Shown here: one piece after another, positions 2 to 61,136 of the stretch
Layout: each line of letters starts with the position of its first letter
How positions within the stretch are numbered: the first letter of the stretch is position 1
Source of the DNA: a bacterium
Lineage (GTDB): Bacteria; Patescibacteriota; Minisyncoccia; Phycocordibacterales; UBA9973
Reading direction: 5' to 3'
NCBI GenBank assembly: GCA_037130655.1
Contig: JBAXSP010000001.1
Coordinates: 37,641 to 101,640, forward strand
Length of the DNA stretch: 64,000 nt
Translations under genes and position numbers: made by a program
The notes under the pieces: generated by a model
What the model was told of the DNA's origin: nothing
The model's database searches: none
The model's input: only the letters and a program-made list of their open reading frames with translations

Positions 2-1303
2 AAAAAATCTACCGAAGAACATCCACTCCTCATCATCGGCACACCGAGTGCGGTTTGTTTCGATAGAAATGACACCGCATATATTGTCATCGAACACGAA
101 CGTTCTCGTGCATACAAAACATTATCATATCCATATATAGACTTGCGACTAGTACTCGAAGCCTATGCGCGCAAAGCTCATATCCCGTGTATCATCGGCG
201 ACTCATTGCTTCGCACCGAAACAATTGCTGAACGTGACAACTACGGACACATCGGACAAACATCACTTCGTCTGCCAGATTTATCAGAAATCAAAATTGA
301 AAGCCTGCGTGATGAAAACGACAAATTCAGTTTGATTTCAAAACCACTCAAAAAAGCACTCGGCCGTGTACAAGAAAATAACGAACATCTTATGTTGTTT
401 GTTCCACGCAAAGGACTGGCACCGATTACGGTCTGTAATGATTGCGGGACCACTGTTCGCTGTACGGGGTGTGATGCACCGCTCGTGCTCTATATGAAAG
501 GCAAAGACAATCGTATCTATAGCTGTAATCGTTGTGGTAATACCGAAGACGCAACAAAATCTTGTACACACTGTACCGGCTGGAATTTGGTCCCACTCGG
601 CATCGGCACAGAAACAGTCAAAGAATTTTTGAGTGATAGTTGCAAAGATGTACCGATTACTATTTTGGACAAAGATCATATCAGTTCAAAAAAAGATGGG
701 CAAAAAATAATAGAAGATTTTTATGCTTCACCATGTGGTATTTTGATTGCGACCGAATATGCGATTCCACTCATGCGTCAACCAATCGACAAAATCGCCA
801 TCGTTACGATGGATACGCTTTTTTCAATTCCACATTTTCGAATGGATGAAAGTATTGTTGGACTCATCATCGCATTGTCAGAACGAGCCAAAGCACCACT
901 TCTTATTCAAACAGACAAAATAGATGCAAAACTATTGTCACACATCAAAAGCGGTAACCTGACTGGTTGGCAAAGAGAAATTGTCGACGAACGAAAAATG
1001 CTAAGCTATCCACCATTCGTACATCTGATTACGATCAGACATCAAGGAAACAAAGTAGATACACAAAAATATAAGACATTGATCGAACGAGAATTTACTG
1101 ATTACAATCCGTACATTCACACCGTAACACTTTCAAAAGTAAAAGAATTGTACGAAACAACCGTCTTGATGAAAATAAAACGCAGTGAATGGCCGTCACT
1201 GACGAATGCAAAAGAAGATTTGCGTGAATTTCCCTTTTACCAAAAAGTCCAAGCCTTTACTCCTGCATACAAAGTAGAAATCAATCCGGATAGCATATTA
1301 TAA
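2..1303 (+). CDS. priA: primosomal protein N' (PriA helicase), 5'-truncated at window edge
   Basis: Frame 2 is open from nt 2 to the stop at 1301-1303. It has the Cys-rich zinc-binding cluster (CNDCGTTVRCTGCDAPL...CNRCGN...CTHC) and the helicase C-terminal region typical of PriA. Confidence 0.85.
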   Translation, partial: KKSTEEHPLLIIGTPSAVCFDRNDTAYIVIEHERSRAYKTLSYPYIDLRLVLEAYARKAHIPCIIGDSLLRTETIAERDNYGHIGQTSLRLPDLSEIKIESLRDENDKFSLISKPLKKALGRVQENNEHLMLFVPRKGLAPITVCNDCGTTVRCTGCDAPLVLYMKGKDNRIYSCNRCGNTEDATKSCTHCTGWNLVPLGIGTETVKEFLSDSCKDVPITILDKDHISSKKDGQKIIEDFYASPCGILIATEYAIPLMRQPIDKIAIVTMDTLFSIPHFRMDESIVGLIIALSERAKAPLLIQTDKIDAKLLSHIKSGNLTGWQREIVDERKMLSYPPFVHLITIRHQGNKVDTQKYKTLIEREFTDYNPYIHTVTLSKVKELYETTVLMKIKRSEWPSLTNAKEDLREFPFYQKVQAFTPAYKVEINPDSIL

Positions 1304-1410
1304 TGACCAATTACTAATGACCGATGACCAATATTCGGAAAACACAGTCGGTTTTGCGAAGTAAAACCGACTGTGTTTTATTAGTCATTAGTCACTGGTC
1401 ACTAGTCATT
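1304..1410. repeat. inverted arrays of tandem 7-nt repeats (TGACCAA/TTAGTCA type) flanking the priA terminator hairpin
   Basis: Left arm 1304-1332 (tgaccaa ttactaa tgaccga tgaccaa), right arm 1380-1410 (ttagtca ttagtca ctggtca ctagtca). The arms are imperfect reverse complements of each other. Confidence 0.7.
1339..1379 (+). terminator. rho-independent terminator after priA (17-bp perfect stem AAAACACAGTCGGTTTT / AAAACCGACTGTGTTTT)
   Basis: Perfect inverted repeat with a 7-nt loop and flanking A/T runs, seen directly in the sequence. Confidence 0.7.
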
Positions 1411-1453
1411 ATTTTTATTTGCACAAAATCCCATTTTGTGATATAAAAATCAT

Positions 1454-4720: not shown

Positions 4721-4842
4721 AGCTAGCTACTAGCATTTAGCTTCTAGCGACTAGCTAAAACAAAAAGAGCGACAACCGAAGGTTGTCGCTCTTTTTGTTT
4801 CGATACACTAGCAACTAGTCACTAGAAACTAGAACCTAAAAA
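4721..4842. repeat. CTAG-type tandem heptamer arrays flanking the ftsZ terminator
   Basis: Left arm agctagc tactagc atttagc ttctagc gactagc. Right arm acactagcaactagtcactagaaactagaacctaaa, which is nearly identical to 50238-50272. Confidence 0.7.
4757..4800 (+). terminator. terminator after ftsZ (20-bp perfect stem AAACAAAAAGAGCGACAACC / GGTTGTCGCTCTTTTTGTTT)
   Basis: Perfect inverted repeat seen directly. Flanked by heptamer-repeat arms at 4721-4755 and 4806-4842. Confidence 0.75.
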
Positions 4843-6633: not shown

Positions 6634-6760
6634 CGTGGTGAAGGCGCAGTGTTGCGTTTTGGAGCACTACGACAAAATGCCACGAGCCGGGGTCGCGAAC
6701 ACTTATGTCCACGCAGTTTACAGAGTAAACGAGTAGACTTAGTGATTCGTGACACAACAG
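6634..6760 (+). ncRNA. tRNA-3'-linked conserved structured element, copy A (putative ncRNA or tRNA 3'-trailer RNA; function unknown)
   Basis: Homologous to 16671-16840 and 46590-46757 (minus). Shares the blocks UACGA(C/U), GAGCCGGGGUCGCGA and ACUUAGU.AUUCGUGAC. The CGAACAC/GUGAUUCG helix shows compensatory changes relative to the other copies. Confidence 0.45.
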
Positions 6761-9036: not shown

Positions 9037-9639
9037 CATTTTTACAAAATCAGTAATGATTTTTTCAAATTCGTCTTTTGCTTGTTCGAGCATACCGGCT
9101 TTGTTTCTAACAGAAACATCAAATTTTCTTCTTTCGTGTAATTCTCTTGTTGCCAAAGCGAGTCTTAATTTGATCTCTTCAGGATTGTCTCGTCCACGTT
9201 TTTTGATACGAGTTTCAAGCTCATCGAGATCAGCAAACACAAAAACACTTTTGATTTGATCAGGATATCTTGCTTTTAAAGCAAGTGCTCCGTTTACATC
9301 ACAAACATGAATCGGAATTTTTCCTTTTCTTACACAACCGCGTAACTCTAAAAAAGTAAGTCCGTAAAAAGTTCCGGACTTTGCTAAATCATTTGTTTCA
9401 ATGAATTCATTAGCAGTAACTCTTTTTTGAAATTCTTCTTTTGTTAAGAAAAAGTAATCAACACCATTTGTTTCAGTTTGACCTGGTTCACGTGTTGTAC
9501 AAGTCACTGTTTTAACAAAAGCAGGATTTCTAGCAATAATAGCTTCAACGATCGTTGTTTTACCAACACCACAAGAAGGGCCGGTGAGGACAATCATTTT
9601 GAATGACGGGTCATCGAAAGGGTTTATTAGATTATTCAT
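9019..9639 (-). CDS. gmk: guanylate kinase
   Basis: P-loop GPSCGVGKTT and conserved TTREPR(P)GE-like guanylate kinase core; 206 aa. Confidence 0.9.
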   Translation of the reverse strand: MNNLINPFDDPSFKMIVLTGPSCGVGKTTIVEAIIARNPAFVKTVTCTTREPGQTETNGVDYFFLTKEEFQKRVTANEFIETNDLAKSGTFYGLTFLELRGCVRKGKIPIHVCDVNGALALKARYPDQIKSVFVFADLDELETRIKKRGRDNPEEIKLRLALATRELHERRKFDVSVRNKAGMLEQAKDEFEKIITDFVKMQNHPV

Positions 9640-17597: not shown

Positions 17598-17677
17598 AAT
17601 ATTTATTAGTTAATGCCTATATAATCATATTATACACCTGATTATTTAAAAATAAAAATAGTTAATTCTTCTTACTA

Positions 17678-17709
17678 TTTAGTCATTAGTAATTGGTCAT
17701 TAGTCATTA
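17678..17709. repeat. tandem heptamer array (tttagtc attagta attggtc attagtc att)
   Basis: Same TAGTCAT repeat family as at 1380-1410, directly abutting the stop of 17714..18100. Confidence 0.65.
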
Positions 17710-17713
17710 TTTT

Positions 17714-18100
17714 CTATTTTTTCTTTCCAAAAACCTTTTTGAGAAAACCGACAAACGCATTATCTTTTTCAGTCACCGGTGTAGGCAATGGTTCATCAAC
17801 AATCATAATCACTTTCTCACCCTCTTTTGCTACTGGATAATGCTCACGGATCACTGTCTCAACACCTCTATCTGTATTCAAATCTCCTAATGTTTTTCGG
17901 AGTTCAATTTCGTGTTTTTGCAAATCGGCATATTCAGCCTCAGATGCACGTTTATTGGAAATAGCCAGTGACATCTTACCCAACACATCAATCACTGAGA
18001 GTAATAAAAGAATTGTAATAACGATACAAAAAACAAGCACTGGTGTCTTCAAAAAAAAGGATTGTACTGGCTTTTTGTGTTGTTGCATTCTTTCATCCAT
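17714..18100 (-). CDS. septum formation initiator family protein (FtsB/DivIC-like)
   Basis: Single N-terminal TM, a coiled-coil segment and the C-terminal IREHYPVAKEGEKVI motif typical of FtsB/DivIC. Confidence 0.6.
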   Translation of the reverse strand: MDERMQQHKKPVQSFFLKTPVLVFCIVITILLLLSVIDVLGKMSLAISNKRASEAEYADLQKHEIELRKTLGDLNTDRGVETVIREHYPVAKEGEKVIMIVDEPLPTPVTEKDNAFVGFLKKVFGKKK

Positions 18101-18270
18101 AGATGTATATTATATCGTATATGTTTTGGAATCCTAAGCACAAAAAGAGAATTGCACTGATTTGGAAGATTATCTGCCTTTTGGTGGTAATCAGTATGAT
18201 TATGTTGTACATTCCGTCATTACTTAGATAGTCAGTATTTTAGATTATAGAGTATAGACAATTCAAGATA

Positions 18271-18300
18271 CAGGACGACCTTCGGTCGTCCTGTATTTTT
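18271..18300 (+). terminator. orphan plus-strand-oriented terminator (CAGGACGACCTTCGGTCGTCCTG + T7)
   Basis: Hairpin with a UUCG loop followed by a T-run on the plus strand only. No plus-strand gene lies upstream. Confidence 0.45.
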
Positions 18301-18337
18301 TATATTCTGAAATACTATACTCTTATATACTTTTTCC

Positions 18338-28080: not shown

Positions 28081-28686
28081 ATGCAAAAACCAATGGAGTA
28101 CAACACAAAAAGTGGACAACGAATTGAAGTTCTTGCAATTCGTGCGACACGTTGGATTGGCTCTGTTTCTTCTATCGTATTTCACACAATTATCTTCATT
28201 CTTTGTTTCGTATTAATTCTCCTTGGCGCACCGACAGACAAAGTATTACTGACACTGACGACCATTGTCTCACTTGAAGCGATTTACCTCTCAATCTTTA
28301 TTCAAATGTCAGTCAATCGTTCAAACAGACGGTTGGTCGCTGTTCGTAAAGACTTGGAAGACATTCAAGAAGGAGTGGAAGAAATCGGGGAAGACATCGA
28401 ACACATTGAAGAAGATATTGGAGAAATCCAAAAAGACGTCGAAGAAATTCAAGGTGAAGTCGGAGAAATTAGTGATGACATTGAAGACATTCAGGAAGAC
28501 GTCAAAGAACTCGGCGAAGAAGTCGAAGACATCGGAGAAGAAATGGATGAAGATGACGAAGAAGGCAAGGCTCGCGATGCGATGATTATGGCAAAAATGG
28601 AAGTGAAGCTCGAAGAGTTACTCCAAGAAATTGCTGTCCTCAAAGAACAAACTGCAAAGAAAAAACCAACAAAGAAATCTGAATAA
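28081..28686 (+). CDS. DUF1003-like membrane protein with an acidic tandem-repeat domain
   Basis: N-terminal RIEVLAIRATRWIGSVSSIVFHTIIFILCFVLILL resembles the DUF1003 core. It is followed by degenerate ~9-10-aa acidic repeats (EDIQEGVEEIGEDIEHIEEDIGEIQKDVEEIQGEVGEISDDIEDIQEDVKELGEEVEDIGEE). Confidence 0.55.
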   Translation: MQKPMEYNTKSGQRIEVLAIRATRWIGSVSSIVFHTIIFILCFVLILLGAPTDKVLLTLTTIVSLEAIYLSIFIQMSVNRSNRRLVAVRKDLEDIQEGVEEIGEDIEHIEEDIGEIQKDVEEIQGEVGEISDDIEDIQEDVKELGEEVEDIGEEMDEDDEEGKARDAMIMAKMEVKLEELLQEIAVLKEQTAKKKPTKKSE

Positions 28687-32732: not shown

Positions 32733-33503
32733 TTATTTTTTTAATTCAACACACATAAACATCGGAAATTCCTTACGAGCAACGTCTTCTGCAGATTTCC
32801 GTGGACCAATTCCACTTTCTTTGTGAGAAATCCATTCTTCAAGACCGACAACTGAAAGTCCGGTCTTTTTGAATAATTTGAAATACCATTGCAGTGGTCG
32901 GTGATACGACGTTGTGGTAATTTTCTTAGCTGTTTTTTGTCCAGGATGAGCATCAATCGCGTACGCAACCTCTTTCATATACAAATCAGTTCTTCGGTAT
33001 TGCACTTTTTTTGCTTCGTCATATCCCCAGTCACTATCTTTTGGAATACGGAAACATGGATGCATCAGTACGATATGCAAACTACCACCATCTATCAATA
33101 CACGTTTTGCTTCAGTGAGCACACCGAGCACGTTATCCATATTTTCAAGTGCAAGTACGATTACCGCTTTATCTTGTGATAAATCTGTCACACCCGACAT
33201 TTTGTCAGCACTGTGAATCAAATACTTGATATCTGTAGACTTTTCTTTTGCAGTAGCAATGAGCGATTTTGAACTATCAATACCAACAACTTGTGCGCCA
33301 CTGAGTGCAAACAATCGACTAAAATATCCTTGCCCACAAGCAATATCAACAATTCTATCTCCTTTCTTGGGACTCAAAAGGCGAATCAAGTTCGGAGCAA
33401 TAACTTTTGCTTGCAAAGTGTCTTCACTTTTTTCTAGATAATCATCGTACCAAGTAGAAACCTTTTCCCATGAAGTATCTTTTTTGTAATTTTTATTAGT
33501 CAT
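32733..33503 (-). CDS. class I SAM-dependent methyltransferase
   Basis: Motif I VDIACGQGYFS, and post-I acidic residue motif VVGIDSS. Confidence 0.75.
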   Translation of the reverse strand: MTNKNYKKDTSWEKVSTWYDDYLEKSEDTLQAKVIAPNLIRLLSPKKGDRIVDIACGQGYFSRLFALSGAQVVGIDSSKSLIATAKEKSTDIKYLIHSADKMSGVTDLSQDKAVIVLALENMDNVLGVLTEAKRVLIDGGSLHIVLMHPCFRIPKDSDWGYDEAKKVQYRRTDLYMKEVAYAIDAHPGQKTAKKITTTSYHRPLQWYFKLFKKTGLSVVGLEEWISHKESGIGPRKSAEDVARKEFPMFMCVELKK

Positions 33504-33530
33504 TGGTCATTAGTAATTAGTCATTACTTA
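33496..33530. repeat. tandem heptamer array (cattggt cattagt aattagt cattact)
   Basis: TAGTCAT family. Spans the methyltransferase start codon and the ndh stop codon. Confidence 0.6.
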
Positions 33531-34750
33531 TTATATTCTTTCAAATTATTTTCCTTTCGATACTTGCGTCCATCTAACCAAAGCCCTATAACCTTACCAA
33601 ATGGCATCCAGCCAGCAAAAAACTTCAAATCGATAACATGTCTCATAAAATATGCAAAACGTCCGTACAGCTTAAATTTGCCCATAGAAAAGACCGCCCA
33701 ATTATCTCCGATTGGAATCGCATATCCAACAGACTGTGCCTTGTATTCTTTGTATGACTTATTGCGAAGTGAATTATTGATCACAGTTGCAACATATGTA
33801 CCATCAAACATCGCTGTTTGTGCGAGTCCTGTGTATTGTGTCTGAGCACAGTCACCAACAATAAAGATTTCTCGGTGCGCCGGCACCCGAAGATATTCAT
33901 CAACAACAACTCTTCTTCGTGGAGAAAGTTCGACACCCGACATACTACTTGCCAATGAATTTATTTTTGTCCCCGCAGTCCAAATGACTGTCTTTGCTTT
34001 CATTGACATATCTCTAAGATAGACTTGCTCAACATCTTCTTTCATCAAGGTACGATTCAAGAAAATATTCACCCCCATACTTTGTAATTTCTTCAATACT
34101 TTTGCAGAAACATCAGCTGGTAATGATGGTAATACTTTTCCGGCCCCTTCAATCAAATCAACGGTCACCAGTGACGGGTCAACTTTCATTTTTCGAGCAA
34201 TACGCTTCATGAATGACACAATGTCACCTGCAATTTCAACTCCTGACGGACCAGCACCAACAATAACGACATGGTAATGCGACACACGTTCTTCTTCACT
34301 TGGATGCATATGTTCTTCAAACAATCCATAAATATGATTTTTGATTCGAAGTGCATCATTGGTTGATTTGAAAGAAAACGCCAACTCAGACACACCAGGA
34401 ATATCAAAATAGTTTGCTTCACTGCCGAGTGCAAAAACCAAATTGTCATAGTGATACACAATACCGTCTTGCCCGTGAACCTCTTTGTTTTCTGGAACGA
34501 TTTTTGTCACCACATCTTTCATTATTTTTACCCGCTCTGGAAGGACATCTTCAAGGGGTACACAAACCTCAATCGGAGAAGCGCAAGTCACCACACGATA
34601 AAGCGCTGGGTAATACTCAAAGTATGATTTATTTGAAATAAGAATAATTTCTGCAAAACTAGGTGCCTTTTTCGCCAGTTCTCGAGCACAAGAAATACCA
34701 GCGAATCCCCCACCAATAATGACAATTTTATGTTTTTTCTCTGAATTCAT
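33524..34750 (-). CDS. ndh: type II NADH:quinone oxidoreductase (NDH-2) / FAD-dependent pyridine nucleotide-disulfide oxidoreductase
   Basis: KIVIIGGGFAG FAD-binding fold, and a second GAGPSGVE NAD(P)-binding fold. Confidence 0.8.
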   Translation of the reverse strand: MNSEKKHKIVIIGGGFAGISCARELAKKAPSFAEIILISNKSYFEYYPALYRVVTCASPIEVCVPLEDVLPERVKIMKDVVTKIVPENKEVHGQDGIVYHYDNLVFALGSEANYFDIPGVSELAFSFKSTNDALRIKNHIYGLFEEHMHPSEEERVSHYHVVIVGAGPSGVEIAGDIVSFMKRIARKMKVDPSLVTVDLIEGAGKVLPSLPADVSAKVLKKLQSMGVNIFLNRTLMKEDVEQVYLRDMSMKAKTVIWTAGTKINSLASSMSGVELSPRRRVVVDEYLRVPAHREIFIVGDCAQTQYTGLAQTAMFDGTYVATVINNSLRNKSYKEYKAQSVGYAIPIGDNWAVFSMGKFKLYGRFAYFMRHVIDLKFFAGWMPFGKVIGLWLDGRKYRKENNLKEYNK

Positions 34751-56981: not shown

Positions 56982-57031
56982 AGTTTAAAGTCGTTAGTCT
57001 ATTAGTCACTTAGTCGTTAGAATGTGAAAAT

Positions 57032-57388
57032 CTATTTGCTTGTGTTTTTTATTAATACTCTAAGTATCTTAAGGATTTCAGTAAGAAGATTTTCAACATT
57101 TTCATACTTTTCTATATTACCATATTTTAATCTTTTTGCAATAGTAAGATGTGTTTCAATTTCTGCACCTGAAGCGAATGCGATTAATAAAAATCGTTTA
57201 AACTCAACTTCTCCTCCTCTCATCCTACCTTCTGCAATGTTTGCAGAAATAGAAACAGCAGCTCTTCTTGTCTGAGAAATCAATCCATATCTTTCATCTT
57301 CTGGAAAATCTTTGAGGAGCTCATAGACAGCAATAACAAGGTCTATACTTTTTTGCCAAACAATGAGATTCTTATAATTTTCATTCAT
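57032..57388 (-). CDS. four-helix-bundle protein (23S rRNA IVS protein / Avd-like family), paralog 2
   Basis: NLIVWQKSIDLV...RRAAVSISANIAEGRMRGGEVEFKRFLLIAFASGAEIETHL. Flanked by inverted heptamer arms at 56984-57024 and 57399-57432. Confidence 0.8.
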   Translation of the reverse strand: MNENYKNLIVWQKSIDLVIAVYELLKDFPEDERYGLISQTRRAAVSISANIAEGRMRGGEVEFKRFLLIAFASGAEIETHLTIAKRLKYGNIEKYENVENLLTEILKILRVLIKNTSK

Positions 57389-57420
57389 ATGTTTTTCTAT
57401 ATGACTAAGCGACTAACAGA

Positions 57421-58329
57421 CTAATTGACTCCTATAAGTGCCTTAGTTGCTATCTGCATCGCACTTTCTTTTGTTTTGGTCACACATAAAAATCTGCAGT
57501 TGTGACAGAAAACAACATCAGAAACACCTGTCGTTTGTTCGAGTTCTTTTTCTTTCAAACCTGCCCAACTTTCAGGAAACTTTTTACGCGGAGTAAATTC
57601 ATTATTTGAATCCTTAATAGTCTCTACTCGCCACCCTCCTCCTGTACCACTTCTCGGAAGCACCACAAACAACACTTCTGGTTTTTCAAGAAGCACTGAA
57701 TTCAAATCATATCGCGAGACATATTCATCGAGTACCAAGATGCTTTTTTCTGGACTTGATTCAAACACAGACAAAATCATTTGTTTTTTTGTAATAAAAC
57801 TGGTGGCTTTGCGAATTTCACCAGAGAGAATTTCTTGTGCGAGCGAAACTGCATTCATAAATGCTTTATATTTCTCTTTGTCTGTGGCAGTATCCAATGC
57901 TTCAATACTAGAGAGCACATCATTGATTGTGTATGGGAAAATACTTGCTTCTTTGATACAACTCATTCCATTGTCGATTGCATCGATCGGAAAAACGAGT
58001 CGCTGTTCAATCATACTTGCAACCTCTTCGTTTCCATTACACACAGATACTCCGTACTCTTTCCATACCAGACCAAACGATGCATACGGAATCGTATTTG
58101 TTCGAACACCTGCACCGCCAATTTGATGATGATCAAAACGGTTAATAGAAGCATCATACACACCACCGACATCAATTACGAAATCTGCTTTGTCTATTTC
58201 TTTTTGATCACGCGTACGAATGACACGAATAGCACCTTTCAAAAAAAGTGAAAGTGTGGCGCAAGCAAAAACATCATCTGCGTGATAACTACCATTGTGC
58301 ACCGCGATTGTTTTTTTCAGAAACCACAT
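57421..58329 (-). CDS. MYG1/UPF0160-family metal-dependent hydrolase
   Basis: N-terminal HNGSYHADDVFA, and conserved His cluster RFDHHQ; 302 aa. Confidence 0.7.
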   Translation of the reverse strand: MWFLKKTIAVHNGSYHADDVFACATLSLFLKGAIRVIRTRDQKEIDKADFVIDVGGVYDASINRFDHHQIGGAGVRTNTIPYASFGLVWKEYGVSVCNGNEEVASMIEQRLVFPIDAIDNGMSCIKEASIFPYTINDVLSSIEALDTATDKEKYKAFMNAVSLAQEILSGEIRKATSFITKKQMILSVFESSPEKSILVLDEYVSRYDLNSVLLEKPEVLFVVLPRSGTGGGWRVETIKDSNNEFTPRKKFPESWAGLKEKELEQTTGVSDVVFCHNCRFLCVTKTKESAMQIATKALIGVN

Positions 58330-59510: not shown

Positions 59511-59966
59511 TTAAGCATTAAACAAACCGTCTATCACCTCCTTAACGGTACTGCCGTCTGCTTTACCTTTGAGCTCTACCATAACTTCTTTCATCAACAA
59601 TCCTTTTTTAGTTGGATCAATCTCGCCCAGCTTTGTCATAATAGCTTTGACCTGTTGTTCAACTTCTTCTTTACTCATCATTGTTGGTAAAAATACTTCG
59701 AGCACTTTCAATTGTGCTTCTTCTTCAACAACCAAATCCATTCGTCCTCCTTTGGTAAATTGTTCGATGGAATCTTTGCGTTGTTTTGCAAGACGAGTAA
59801 TTACTTTCAAACACTCTTCATCTGATAACTCTTCTTGTGGTTTTCTACCAGTTGCTACAAGTTCATTAGTAAAAGCAGATGACAACCCACGCATTACATC
59901 AAGACGGACTTGATCTTTTGCTTTCATTGCCTCCTTTATGTTGTTTTTTATATCTTCAAAAATCAT
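59511..59966 (-). CDS. yqeY: GatB/YqeY-domain protein
   Basis: YqeY motifs (IKEAMKAKD..RLDVMRGL, KQRKDSIEQF.KGGRMDLV.EE, GKADG..VKEVI); about 150 aa from the internal Met. Confidence 0.75.
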   Translation of the reverse strand: MIFEDIKNNIKEAMKAKDQVRLDVMRGLSSAFTNELVATGRKPQEELSDEECLKVITRLAKQRKDSIEQFTKGGRMDLVVEEEAQLKVLEVFLPTMMSKEEVEQQVKAIMTKLGEIDPTKKGLLMKEVMVELKGKADGSTVKEVIDGLFNA

Positions 59967-60006
59967 ATAGAAAAGTATATCAGAATATAGATAAACAGAG
60001 TATAGA

Positions 60007-60363
60007 CTAGCGATTTCGCTCAATTAATTTATTTAACATTCTCATTATTTCTGATAATTTTTCATATAGTTCGATTTCCTCTTTTTTAGAAACATATTTT
60101 AATCTTTCAGCTATTTTTATTTGAGTATCTAGTTCAGCCAAAGACCCTAGTGACATAGTTAAAAAATGAGCGAAATCTTTTTGAGTATTACGACGACTTC
60201 CTTCAGCAATATTTGAAGGTACTGAAATTACAGCTCTTCGTATTTGAGATGTAAGTGCATAATCTTCATTCTTAGGAAATTTTTTAGTAATCTCGTAAAC
60301 AAATATGACAAAATCCATACTCTTTTGCCAAACAACCAATTTTTCATAATCATGCATCTGCAT
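60007..60363 (-). CDS. four-helix-bundle protein (23S rRNA IVS protein / Avd-like family), paralog 3
   Basis: KLVVWQKSMDFV...RRAVISVPSNIAEGSRRNTQKDFAHFLTMSLGSLAELDTQI. Flanked by TATAC-type inverted arms at 59975-60011 and 60381-60412. Confidence 0.8.
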   Translation of the reverse strand: MQMHDYEKLVVWQKSMDFVIFVYEITKKFPKNEDYALTSQIRRAVISVPSNIAEGSRRNTQKDFAHFLTMSLGSLAELDTQIKIAERLKYVSKKEEIELYEKLSEIMRMLNKLIERNR

Positions 60364-60422
60364 ATATACATATTGTATCCTCTATATTCTAAAATACTAT
60401 ACTCTGATATACTTTGTTTTAT

Positions 60423-61136
60423 ATGAATCTTATCTTTTTGGACACCGAAACAACCGGCATCGGACCCGATGATTATCTCTGCCAATTGGCATATAAGCAT
60501 AATGACGAAGTTTTTTGCGAACTCTACAATCCTGGCAAGAAAATTCCTCCAGAAGCAAGTGCGGTGACACACATTTCAAATAAAATGATCGAGGGAAAAC
60601 CCTCTTTTCGAGAAAGTGCCGACTATCAAAGAATAAAAAGTTTGCTTGAAAATCCTGAGAATATTTTTGTTGCTCACAATGCAAAATTTGATCTGATGAT
60701 GATCAACAAAGAAGATATCATTCCCGCAAATGTGATCTGTACATTGCGTGTTGCTCGATATCTTGATCCGGAACACAAAATTCCACAGCACAAATTGCAA
60801 TTCTTGCGATATTATTTGGAAATTGAAATCGAAGCACAAGCCCACGACGCACTCGGTGACGTACTAGTACTCGAACAACTTTTCCCTCGTTTGTATAAAA
60901 AAATCGCCGAAGAAGTTGGCGAAGAAAAAGCGTTGGAAAAAATGATTGAGGTCTCATCGCGACCATCAATGATGTATTCATTCTCTTTTGGTAAGCATCT
61001 TGGCAGAACAGTAGCTGAAGTTGCACAGATTGATCGTGGTTATTTGGAATGGCTGCTCGCTTCAAAAGAAAAAGATGCACCAGACGATGAAGACTGGATT
61101 TACACCCTGCGTCACCATTTAGGAAAATTAGTATAA
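60423..61136 (+). CDS. DnaQ-like 3'-5' exonuclease (DEDDh) with C-terminal DUF3820/ExoX-C-like domain
   Basis: Exo I FLDTETTG, Exo II HNAKFDL and Exo III HDALGD motifs. C-terminal FSFGKHLGRTVAEVAQIDRGYLEWL. Confidence 0.8.
   Translation: MNLIFLDTETTGIGPDDYLCQLAYKHNDEVFCELYNPGKKIPPEASAVTHISNKMIEGKPSFRESADYQRIKSLLENPENIFVAHNAKFDLMMINKEDIIPANVICTLRVARYLDPEHKIPQHKLQFLRYYLEIEIEAQAHDALGDVLVLEQLFPRLYKKIAEEVGEEKALEKMIEVSSRPSMMYSFSFGKHLGRTVAEVAQIDRGYLEWLLASKEKDAPDDEDWIYTLRHHLGKLV

Follow-up and report, generated by a model that had tools for sequence, protein, structure and literature searches.

Intervening sequences (IVSs) that carry an S23p/4HB open reading frame (ORF) are known from the 23S rRNA of Coxiella burnetii, Leptospira, and Xanthomonas, where the terminal repeats of the rRNA IVS form a stem that is cut by RNase III; the origin and purpose of both the IVS and its conserved ORF have been debated since the early 1990s (PMC4990558). 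The encoded protein, 23S_rRNA_IVP, is also listed by a large screen among the proteins linked to CRISPR-like arrays (PMC10910872). A sequence grammar that will concern us below is that of the HutP operator, UAGNNNNUAGNNNNUAG, in which (UAG-N4)3 arrays surround an intrinsic terminator (PMC2425495). Here we describe a gene for a four-helix-bundle (4HB) protein of this type, the third in a window of 64,000 nucleotides (the whole stretch of DNA that was analysed) from a Patescibacteria (Paceibacteria-like) MAG. The window holds no rRNA, only five tRNAs, and gene 3 lies between two protein-coding genes; we conclude that the segment 59965-60422 is very probably an IVS-type 4HB cassette residing outside rRNA. 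The locus is composed of the following features:

59511-59966, minus strand: yqeY (GatB/YqeY domain; PF09424 and homologues), flanking gene
59965-60006, minus strand: downstream arm, the 'left box' of an earlier note on this DNA, TCTATACTCTGTTTATCTATATTCTGATATACTTT
60007-60363, minus strand: 4HB gene 3, 118 aa (116 aa if translated from its second ATG, 60357)
60364-60380, minus strand: segment directly 5' of the gene 3 start, GGATACAATATGTATAT
60381-60422, minus strand: upstream arm, the earlier 'right TATAC box', whose sense strand reads AAAGTATATCAGAGTATAGTATTTTAGAATATAGA
60423-61136, plus strand: divergent flanking gene for a DnaQ/ExoX-like exonuclease (exo; PF00929 and PF20600)

The 4HB identity that had been proposed for gene 3 from the letters of the DNA is borne out by full-length matches to PF05635 (E 7.6e-42, 142.3 bits against the Pfam cut-off of 33.8) and to TIGR02436 (E 2.2e-40, 137.3 bits against a cut-off of 24), the family named 23S_rRNA_IVP (four-helix-bundle 23S rRNA intervening sequence protein), and the other two 4HB genes of the window, genes 1 and 2, also score above the PF05635 and TIGR02436 cut-offs. 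The nearest solved structure is that of XCC0516 (2GSC, E 3.4e-26), which has five chains in the deposit, as does a further solved homologue, 2RLD. An exact look-up of the gene 3 protein gave no match, and gene callers begin it at the second ATG. The segment 60364-60380 is probably the promoter of a near-leaderless 4HB mRNA, given that the pattern TGnTAnnnT-N6-7-ATG is common in this genome.

The two flanks of gene 3 (59965-60006 and 60381-60422) form an inverted repeat of 42 nt that is 74% complementary, with a Smith-Waterman score of 40 (highest score among 500 dinucleotide shuffles, 37), which confirms the earlier description of imperfect inverted repeats at this place; the left flank sequence is present as described, but the string counts 33 nt and thus occupies 59975-60007 rather than 59975-60005, overlapping the 4HB stop codon. 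The minimum-energy RNA fold of the cassette pairs 29 positions from flank to flank. Within the upstream arm, the TAG units are spaced 8 and 7 nt apart, and the arm is homologous to that of a cassette from another genome, L024 (score 49). The core motif AGAGTATAG occurs four times in 64 kb, against a chance expectation of 0.23, with all occurrences falling at the gene 3 and lepA loci and in inverted pairs, and the copy number of this arm family in the 64 kb is two loci. The fetched loci and the scans of public collections yielded no further copies of it: an exact scan of the genome contig collection for the box pattern TATAYTCT-N6-CTATAYTCT-N-ATATAC returned no match, and four metagenome-contig matches were set aside as representing one unrelated sequence without similarity to the window. 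Rfam contains no family that falls at the gene 3 or lepA boxes, and neither locus shows a recombinase, a transposase, or a target-site duplication.

The second locus of the arm family lies beside lepA and contains the following:

18236-18262, plus strand: left arm, TAGATTA TAGAGTA TAGACAA
18265-18299, plus strand: intrinsic terminator between the arms, a 16-bp hairpin followed by a T-run
18292-18334, plus strand: right arm, abutting the lepA stop codon (18338)

In agreement with the earlier note, the boxes at lepA enclose nothing more than this terminator hairpin, which ends a small plus-strand ORF at 18120-18230. The right box recurs here with 27/29 identical positions (60384-60412 against 18302-18330); with up to three mismatches allowed, the window has no match beyond these two, and 100 shuffles gave none. 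Over 42 nt, the two loci are still 88% identical (18292-18333 against 60374-60415; Smith-Waterman score 59, maximum 34 in 500 dinucleotide shuffles). The recurrence of the left box holds as far as AGAGTATAGAC, the left-arm core of gene 3, is concerned, with its position corrected from 18250-18260 to 18249-18259; this similarity is the weaker one, with a score of 28 that was attained by 4/500 shuffles, and it is weak beyond 11 nt. The order of the arms is that of the cassette, namely a TAG-type arm, an insert, and a CTA-type arm, and the two loci cease to be alike at the 4HB stop codon towards one end of the gene and, towards the other end, 10-20 nt ahead of its start codon.

The pairing of a 4HB gene with a gene-less module proved to be a repeated arrangement in the window, to which the following features contribute:

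49821-50272, minus strand: 4HB cassette 1, between frr and rseP, ORF 49861-50226
56985-57438, minus strand: 4HB cassette 2, between a MYG1-family gene and obg, ORF 57032-57388
1301-1411, plus strand: gene-less module with TGACNAA / TTAGTCA heptamer arms around a terminator at 1339-1379
4722-4839, plus strand: gene-less module in the ftsZ-trxB spacer, with CTAG-type arms around a terminator at 4762-4796
17663-17715 and 33487-33539: single arrays

All three 4HB genes of the window are bracketed by inverted arms, each with a different arm family, with CTAG-type arms at 49821-49852 and 50239-50272 in cassette 1, and TTAGTC-type arms at 56985-57024 and 57398-57438 in cassette 2. The inverted repeats of cassettes 1 and 2 each beat all 500 shuffles, and the minimum-energy RNA folds of the three cassettes contain 29-36 flank-to-flank pairs (34 in cassette 1). 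Modules of the form arm-terminator-arm and lacking a gene are found at three places (1301-1411, 4722-4839, and, of the TATAC type, 18236-18334), the right arm of 4722-4839 being 90% complementary to a cassette-1 arm over 31 nt. Each arm family of the window thus surrounds a 4HB gene in one place and a terminator in another, and the lepA/gene 3 pair is one instance of this pattern.

Both kinds of element vary among relatives. Gene 2 is missing from its slot in L010 and L012, and the 1301-1411 module is missing from L104. Relative to the 94% strain, the heptamer array that follows divIC is an indel of 52 nt, flanked by an imperfect direct repeat of 11 nt. The ftsZ-trxB spacer of three strains whose FtsZ proteins are 98% identical measures 144, 210, and 278 nt and has non-homologous cores; in L105, its arm is identical over 25 nt to the gene-1 arm of the window, and its terminator core, GGACGACCGAAGGTCGTCC, is the lepA hairpin of the window. 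Near-identical strains thus differ in the arm-bearing modules that they possess.

The bracket extends well beyond this genome. One genome per species was scanned with the three window proteins, which gave 80 loci, mostly from Patescibacteria, with some from Verrucomicrobia, Lentisphaerae, Fibrobacter, Firmicutes, and Bacteroidales. For each gene, the 90 nt upstream of the ORF were aligned with the reverse complement of the 90 nt downstream, and 339 other genes from the same loci served as the control set. The median inverted-repeat score was 33 for 81 4HB genes, as opposed to 14 for the 339 other genes (Mann-Whitney p 1e-27). TAG was counted 3.95 times per 60 nt upstream of the 4HB genes and 0.82 times upstream of the others, and it was present in all three frames in 58% and 2.7%, respectively. 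The earlier claim that 4HB genes are tied to a discrete repeat element is therefore upheld, with 3/3 such genes in the window and 69% of the 81 elsewhere (those scoring above the 95th percentile of the 339 other genes), but not its reading of the two loci as a filled and an empty site, to which we return below. Successive TAGs in the arms are separated by 7 nt in 53% of cases and by 8 nt in 15%, and the commonest upstream run consists of five units (22/84), within a broad distribution of run lengths. The same bracket surrounds 4HB genes on viral contigs. A bracket of (TAGNNNN)n arrays is hence a family-wide signature and not a chance repeat. None of the 18 other 4HB loci tested for location lies in rRNA (0/18), and in the literature we found no description of heptad arms around PF05635/TIGR02436 genes outside rRNA. 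A gene of another family, GxxExxY (TIGR04256), is bracketed likewise in L046.

The similarity of the arms follows that of the proteins across genomes (rho 0.375; Mantel test, 0/300 permutations). For most pairs of nearest proteins, the flanking genes are the same, a sign of vertical inheritance within fixed slots; for several pairs they are not, and related cassettes are also encountered in unrelated gene contexts.

We lean, with moderate confidence, towards a full account in which gene 3 belongs to an IVS-type cassette with the family-wide TAG arms, is an old resident of its slot, and has a gene-less copy of its arms at lepA. The cis-acting part of such a cassette would be its arms, of about 42 nt, imperfectly inverted, and built of TAG-initiated units of 7-8 nt. 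These could enclose the ORF in a long stem, as in the rRNA IVS where RNase III cuts, and would place TAG in all three frames against anything reading into the cassette, whichever side it comes from. Recombination between loci could copy the arms or exchange them, whether or not the ORF goes with them, and we take their spread by homologous or illegitimate recombination as the default assumption. That the arms function as an RNA stem for RNase III strikes us as doubtful. In cassettes 1 and 2, which sit inside co-directional gene strings, the stem would be transcribed. Among 56 arm pairs, the mismatches showed no G-U bias on either strand (47 versus 43, with 189 transversions), and this absence of wobble bias argues against selection on an RNA stem. 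When four orthologous cassettes were examined for concerted evolution of their two arms, the arms of one genome were not consistently more complementary to each other than to those of another genome. At gene 3, the stem may never be transcribed, because the upstream arm lies beyond the likely start of 4HB transcription, in the divergent promoter region.

What the arms of gene 3 probably do provide is a pair of promoters. The outer 9 nt of each arm read TGATATACT, which stands 7 nt before the yqeY ATG (59966) and 9 nt before the exonuclease ATG (60423, plus strand). No Shine-Dalgarno sequence was found in any of the 59 confidently called genes of the window (0/59), and in 28 of the 59 a TAnnnT hexamer lies 4-9 nt ahead of the ATG, preceded by TGn in 11 of these 28, from which it appears that leaderless transcripts from extended -10 promoters are common in this genome. 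The position of TGATATACT, the lack of Shine-Dalgarno sequences, and the wide use of TGnTAnnnT-N6-7-ATG together suggest that the arm ends double as extended -10 promoters of leaderless yqeY and exonuclease transcripts. A scan for canonical -35/-10 promoters did not call the arm ends, and the promoter reading is one of the extended -10/leaderless pattern and of no other signal. For the annotation of Patescibacteria, this would mean that such arms can supply leaderless extended -10 promoters.

It could be argued from here that the boxes are purely regulatory, that is, promoters or operators of a shared regulator, alike on account of the co-regulation of their genes, with the 4HB gene merely happening to lie between divergent promoters. 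The outer arm ends, 7-9 nt before leaderless start codons, are what one would expect in that case; relatives with YqeY 79-81% identical and no 4HB gene (L015-17) also have TATATTCTGATATACTTTTTCAT-ATG in front of yqeY, so that L015 keeps the element as a yqeY promoter without the gene, and a -35/-10-like pair overlaps the left arm at lepA on the minus strand. Yet the right arm at lepA points into the 3' end of lepA, where there is no gene for it to drive, and the TG of its extended -10 is gone; the 27/29 identity exceeds the need of a promoter consensus; and the bracket is found as well in the co-directional operons that hold cassettes 1 and 2, and around 69% of the family elsewhere. We consider a purely regulatory role unlikely.

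A further explanation, which we put forward by analogy with HutP, sees the arms as putative binding arrays of a ring-shaped 4HB oligomer that would read (UAG-N4)n in RNA or single-stranded DNA (ssDNA), controlling its own expression in cis and acting in trans on termination or processing at gene-less arrays. It would draw together the 7-nt TAG spacing that dominates the arms, the five-unit run as the commonest length alongside the five chains deposited for 2GSC and 2RLD, the gene-less twin at a terminator that each arm family of the window possesses, and the covariation of arms and protein. It would also suit the lepA left arm, whose three TAGs, 7 nt apart, stand directly 5' of the terminator on the transcribed plus strand (UAG-N4-UAG-N4-UAG at 18240-18260). 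The fold of HutP, however, is unrelated, the covariation is explained equally well by joint inheritance, the run-length distribution is broad, and read-through of the lepA terminator would yield only antisense lepA RNA. As matters stand, binding arrays of this kind seem improbable, and so, to the same degree, does the generalisation that 4HB (IVS) proteins might be sequence-specific readers of (UAG-N4)n arrays, with each paralogue addressing its own arm family, at its own gene as well as at the gene-less arrays beside terminators in other parts of the genome. If true, the IVS proteins would make up a widespread class of array-specific RNA/ssDNA-binding regulators or mobility factors, with rRNA intervening sequences as no more than one of many landing places.

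The preferred account, that of an old cassette with a derived copy of its arms at lepA, draws on the orthologous sites in related genomes, and these sites also bear on the interpretation offered in the earlier note, in which the TATAC boxes would be a resident attachment or landing site, occupied between exo and yqeY and empty at lepA. That interpretation has in its favour that the two loci share both arms and their inverted order, that the similarity breaks off at the stop codon of the 4HB gene and some 10-20 nt 5' of its start, and that gene-less arm-terminator-arm modules exist in other arm families as well.

In the closest relative (YqeY 92% identical; L005-7), the exo/yqeY slot holds the same cassette, with boxes at the 4HB locus that are 100% identical. 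The arms and spacers show 0/99 differences, and the 4HB ORF differs at 13/357 positions, with 12 codons changed synonymously and one non-synonymously, whereas exo and yqeY differ by 8.2-8.8%; the cassette as a whole (13/456) is significantly less diverged than the flanking genes (97/1129; p 1.7e-5). This low divergence points to strong constraint or to a recent exchange of the cassette. We had considered lower divergence of cassettes than of their flanks as a general rule, and abandoned it because other orthologous pairs are inconsistent. Judged from these substitutions, gene 3 is under purifying selection and not decaying; it is a conserved gene that looks expressed.

More distant genomes place the cassette deeper in time. 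Three other Paceibacteria genomes from GTDB (L024-L026) have the order exo, 4HB gene, yqeY, with homologous arms, e.g., AAGTATATAGTAGTTAGTATGTTAGAATATAGA, and with identities to the window of 58-64% for the 4HB protein and 62-66% for YqeY. The YqeY of L025, which has the gene, is 78% identical to that of L010 and 74% to that of L009, both without the gene, and 64% identical to that of the window. As the cassettes of L024-L026 occupy the same slot and the divergence of the 4HB protein matches that of YqeY, the cassette is old and not a recent insertion; the simplest history is that it has been inherited mostly vertically in the exo/yqeY slot of this Paceibacteria clade, with at least two losses. 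In L049 and L066, the 4HB gene follows yqeY, which puts it in other slots of the same gene block in other lineages.

Gene-less orthologous sites are of two kinds. In L009 and L010-14, only 30-36 bp separate the divergent start codons, and the box pair is absent from these spacers. In L015-17, the spacer is 140 bp long and has an AT-rich hairpin, and of the arms it retains just the yqeY-proximal end. At 24/29 positions, the L009 spacer is colinear with the segment directly 5' of the 4HB start, and since both start codons sit in TATATG, it fits better as the remnant of a deletion that joined the 4HB ATG to that of yqeY. Another reading of this match, in which a recent insertion had trapped an ancestral promoter, was dropped, as L024-L026 show the cassette to be old.

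At lepA, the comparison with the closest relative (DivIC 94% identical; L018-22) gives the direction of change. Its lepA-divIC spacer measures 178 nt, versus 237 nt in the window, and instead of the box-hairpin-box of about 107 nt it contains about 48 nt with a plain bidirectional terminator, AAAAAGTGGCGGAACC...GGTTCCGCCACTTTTT; L018-22 have no TATAC box at lepA, and no target-site duplication is visible at the lepA junctions relative to L018. An 87% relative, known from its spacer length alone, has a lepA-divIC spacer of 176 nt. Given that the 94% relative has identical 4HB boxes and a plain lepA terminator, the lepA module is likely to be a derived gene-less copy, gained in the lineage of the window strain, and not a vacant target; the boxed module at lepA is most likely younger than the arms of gene 3, which both strains share. 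This polarity is read from one sequenced relative and one spacer length. The left arm at lepA is far more diverged than the right, so that the donor need not be the resident cassette and may have been another.

These sites weigh heavily against lepA as the empty counterpart of gene 3. The closest relative has the boxes at the 4HB gene and none at lepA, the gene-less exo/yqeY orthologues lack the box pair, which assigns the boxes to the cassette rather than to its target, the arms covary with the protein across genomes, the cassette has been in its slot since before the divergence from L024-L026, and a portion of each box is probably just the extended -10 of the adjacent leaderless gene. No 4HB gene adjoins lepA or ftsZ, as a 'filled' allele would, among the 80 loci. 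A true filled/empty pair is, in our judgement, highly improbable. Chance similarity in AT-rich intergenic DNA, a doubt for which the AT-richness of the genome and the construction of the boxes from -10-like hexamers gave some ground, can be regarded as negligible, since no shuffle equalled the right box or the inverted repeat.

Returning to the IVS-type cassette, its wider meaning is that an ORF with inverted heptad arms is the normal form of this protein family, mostly outside rRNA and between ordinary genes. The heptad arms may also account for the link of 23S_rRNA_IVP to CRISPR-like arrays in screens (PMC10910872). The arms occur, in addition, without the gene around terminators, with turnover between strains whose FtsZ is 98% identical.

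Four known systems lend themselves to comparison. Gene 3 resembles Avd in its homologous four-helix-bundle fold, with sub-threshold matches to PF22296 and NF033474. Avd is a nucleic-acid-handling cofactor of diversity-generating retroelements (DGRs). An identification of gene 3 as Avd was rejected, with NF033474 at 42.8 bits against a cut-off of 80 and with yqeY and an exonuclease gene as neighbours; no reverse transcriptase lies beside any of the cassettes. With HutP/TRAP systems, the likeness is one of grammar, the arm sequences matching the UAG-heptad grammar of HutP, whereas homologues of HutP and TRAP are missing from the cassette, the 4HB protein is of an unrelated fold, and the arrays come as inverted pairs.

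Correia elements and bacterial MITEs are intergenic elements of about 100 bp with terminal inverted repeats that form a long hairpin. The ends of Correia elements are -10-like, and the elements lie beside a terminator or act as one and are polymorphic between strains. The arm modules of the window are similar in size, hairpin, promoter-bearing ends, and strain polymorphism. They differ in that no target-site duplication or partner transposase was found at the gene 3 and lepA loci, in their very low copy number, in that the arms are periodic heptad arrays, and in that the 'full-length' partner carries a 4HB gene and not a transposase.

The nearest known entity is the 23S rRNA IVS, whose protein belongs to the same family as that of gene 3. 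The gene 3 cassette departs from it in lying between protein genes and not in helix 25 or 45 of 23S rRNA, in the purifying selection that acts on its gene, in arms co-opted as predicted promoters, in gene-less twins that enclose terminators, and in the doubtful role that RNase III processing would have at gene 3. The two agree on the following points: the ORF lies in the loop of a stem of terminal repeats (28 bp in Coxiella and a predicted 19 + 10 bp here), heptamers repeated in tandem adjoin the ORF, the element is about 430-460 nt long, and its distribution among relatives is patchy, with mobility long suspected and no recombinase found.

Inverted arms and their extra copies extend beyond the four-helix-bundle (4HB) cassettes of the window, as illustrated by two loci from other genomes, namely L046, one of the 80 loci retrieved by a scan with the three 4HB proteins of the window, and L024, from a genome with a 4HB cassette in the exo/yqeY slot:

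L046, 4654-5061: GxxExxY (TIGR04256) gene inside a 42-nt near-perfect inverted repeat
L024, about 2120-2210: third arm copy, TCTATATTCTAATTACTATTTACTAACTACTT, downstream of the exonuclease gene

The repeat in L046 is of the same general kind as the 4HB arms, and 4HB genes are therefore not the sole cargo of such arms. By virtue of the third copy in L024 the exonuclease gene is bracketed too, and the occurrence of additional arm copies close to a cassette is not confined to the window.

At the lepA locus, where the arm pair encloses no gene, two further features deserve attention:

Window 18120-18230, + strand: unannotated hydrophobic ORF of 36 aa, MFWNPKHKKRIALIWKIICLLVVISMIMLYIPSLLR
Window 18270-18295: terminator core, 8-bp stem with tetraloop, GGACGACC-GAAG/CTTC-GGTCGTCC

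The ORF, which is convergent with lepA and is ended by the + strand terminator enclosed in the boxes, is kept in the 94% relative (L018) with exclusively conservative substitutions. The same terminator core also occurs in the ftsZ-trxB spacer of the sister strain L105 (about 1400-1430), and terminator cores may be shuffled jointly with the arms.

Closely related strains differ in several other segments:

Window 17663-17715: heptamer array, 52 nt, AATAATGACTAATGACCAATTACTAATGACTAAATAG, directly past the divIC stop
L010, 3690-3770, and L012, 3665-3745: MYG1-obg spacer segment of about 69 nt with inverted-repeat ends (GAGAATRTTTRCTTTCC...)
L104, 9379-16120: block past the shared genes, encoding a serine recombinase (Resolvase), a T5orf172 protein, a ResIII helicase and an N6/N4 methylase

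The heptamer array, flanked by imperfect 11-nt direct repeats (AAGAAAAAATA / AAGAAGAATTA), is missing from L018 (compared at about 9300-9330). The spacer segment has opposite orientations in L010 and L012, two relatives without a 4HB gene in this slot whose YqeY proteins are identical, which reflects either an inversion or insertion of the element both ways. The L104 block, carried by a strain with a 98% identical FtsZ, is probably a strain-specific island.

Among the 59 genes called in the window, none has a Shine-Dalgarno motif, and about half carry a -10-like hexamer, often preceded by TGn, 4-9 nt ahead of the ATG; the genome appears to be largely leaderless. The window also contains two other repeats:

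Window 28343-28572: at least seven 21-nt tandem repeats within a coding region
Window 6683-6753 and 46602-46672, opposite strands: 71-nt element, CGAGCCGGGGTCGCGA...GACTTAGT.A.TCGTGAC

The former encode an acidic, E/D-rich repeat of the ...EDIxE... type. The two copies of the latter are 80% similar, and each follows a tRNA gene at a distance of about 90-130 nt. No Rfam family matches this element, which may be an undescribed structured RNA.
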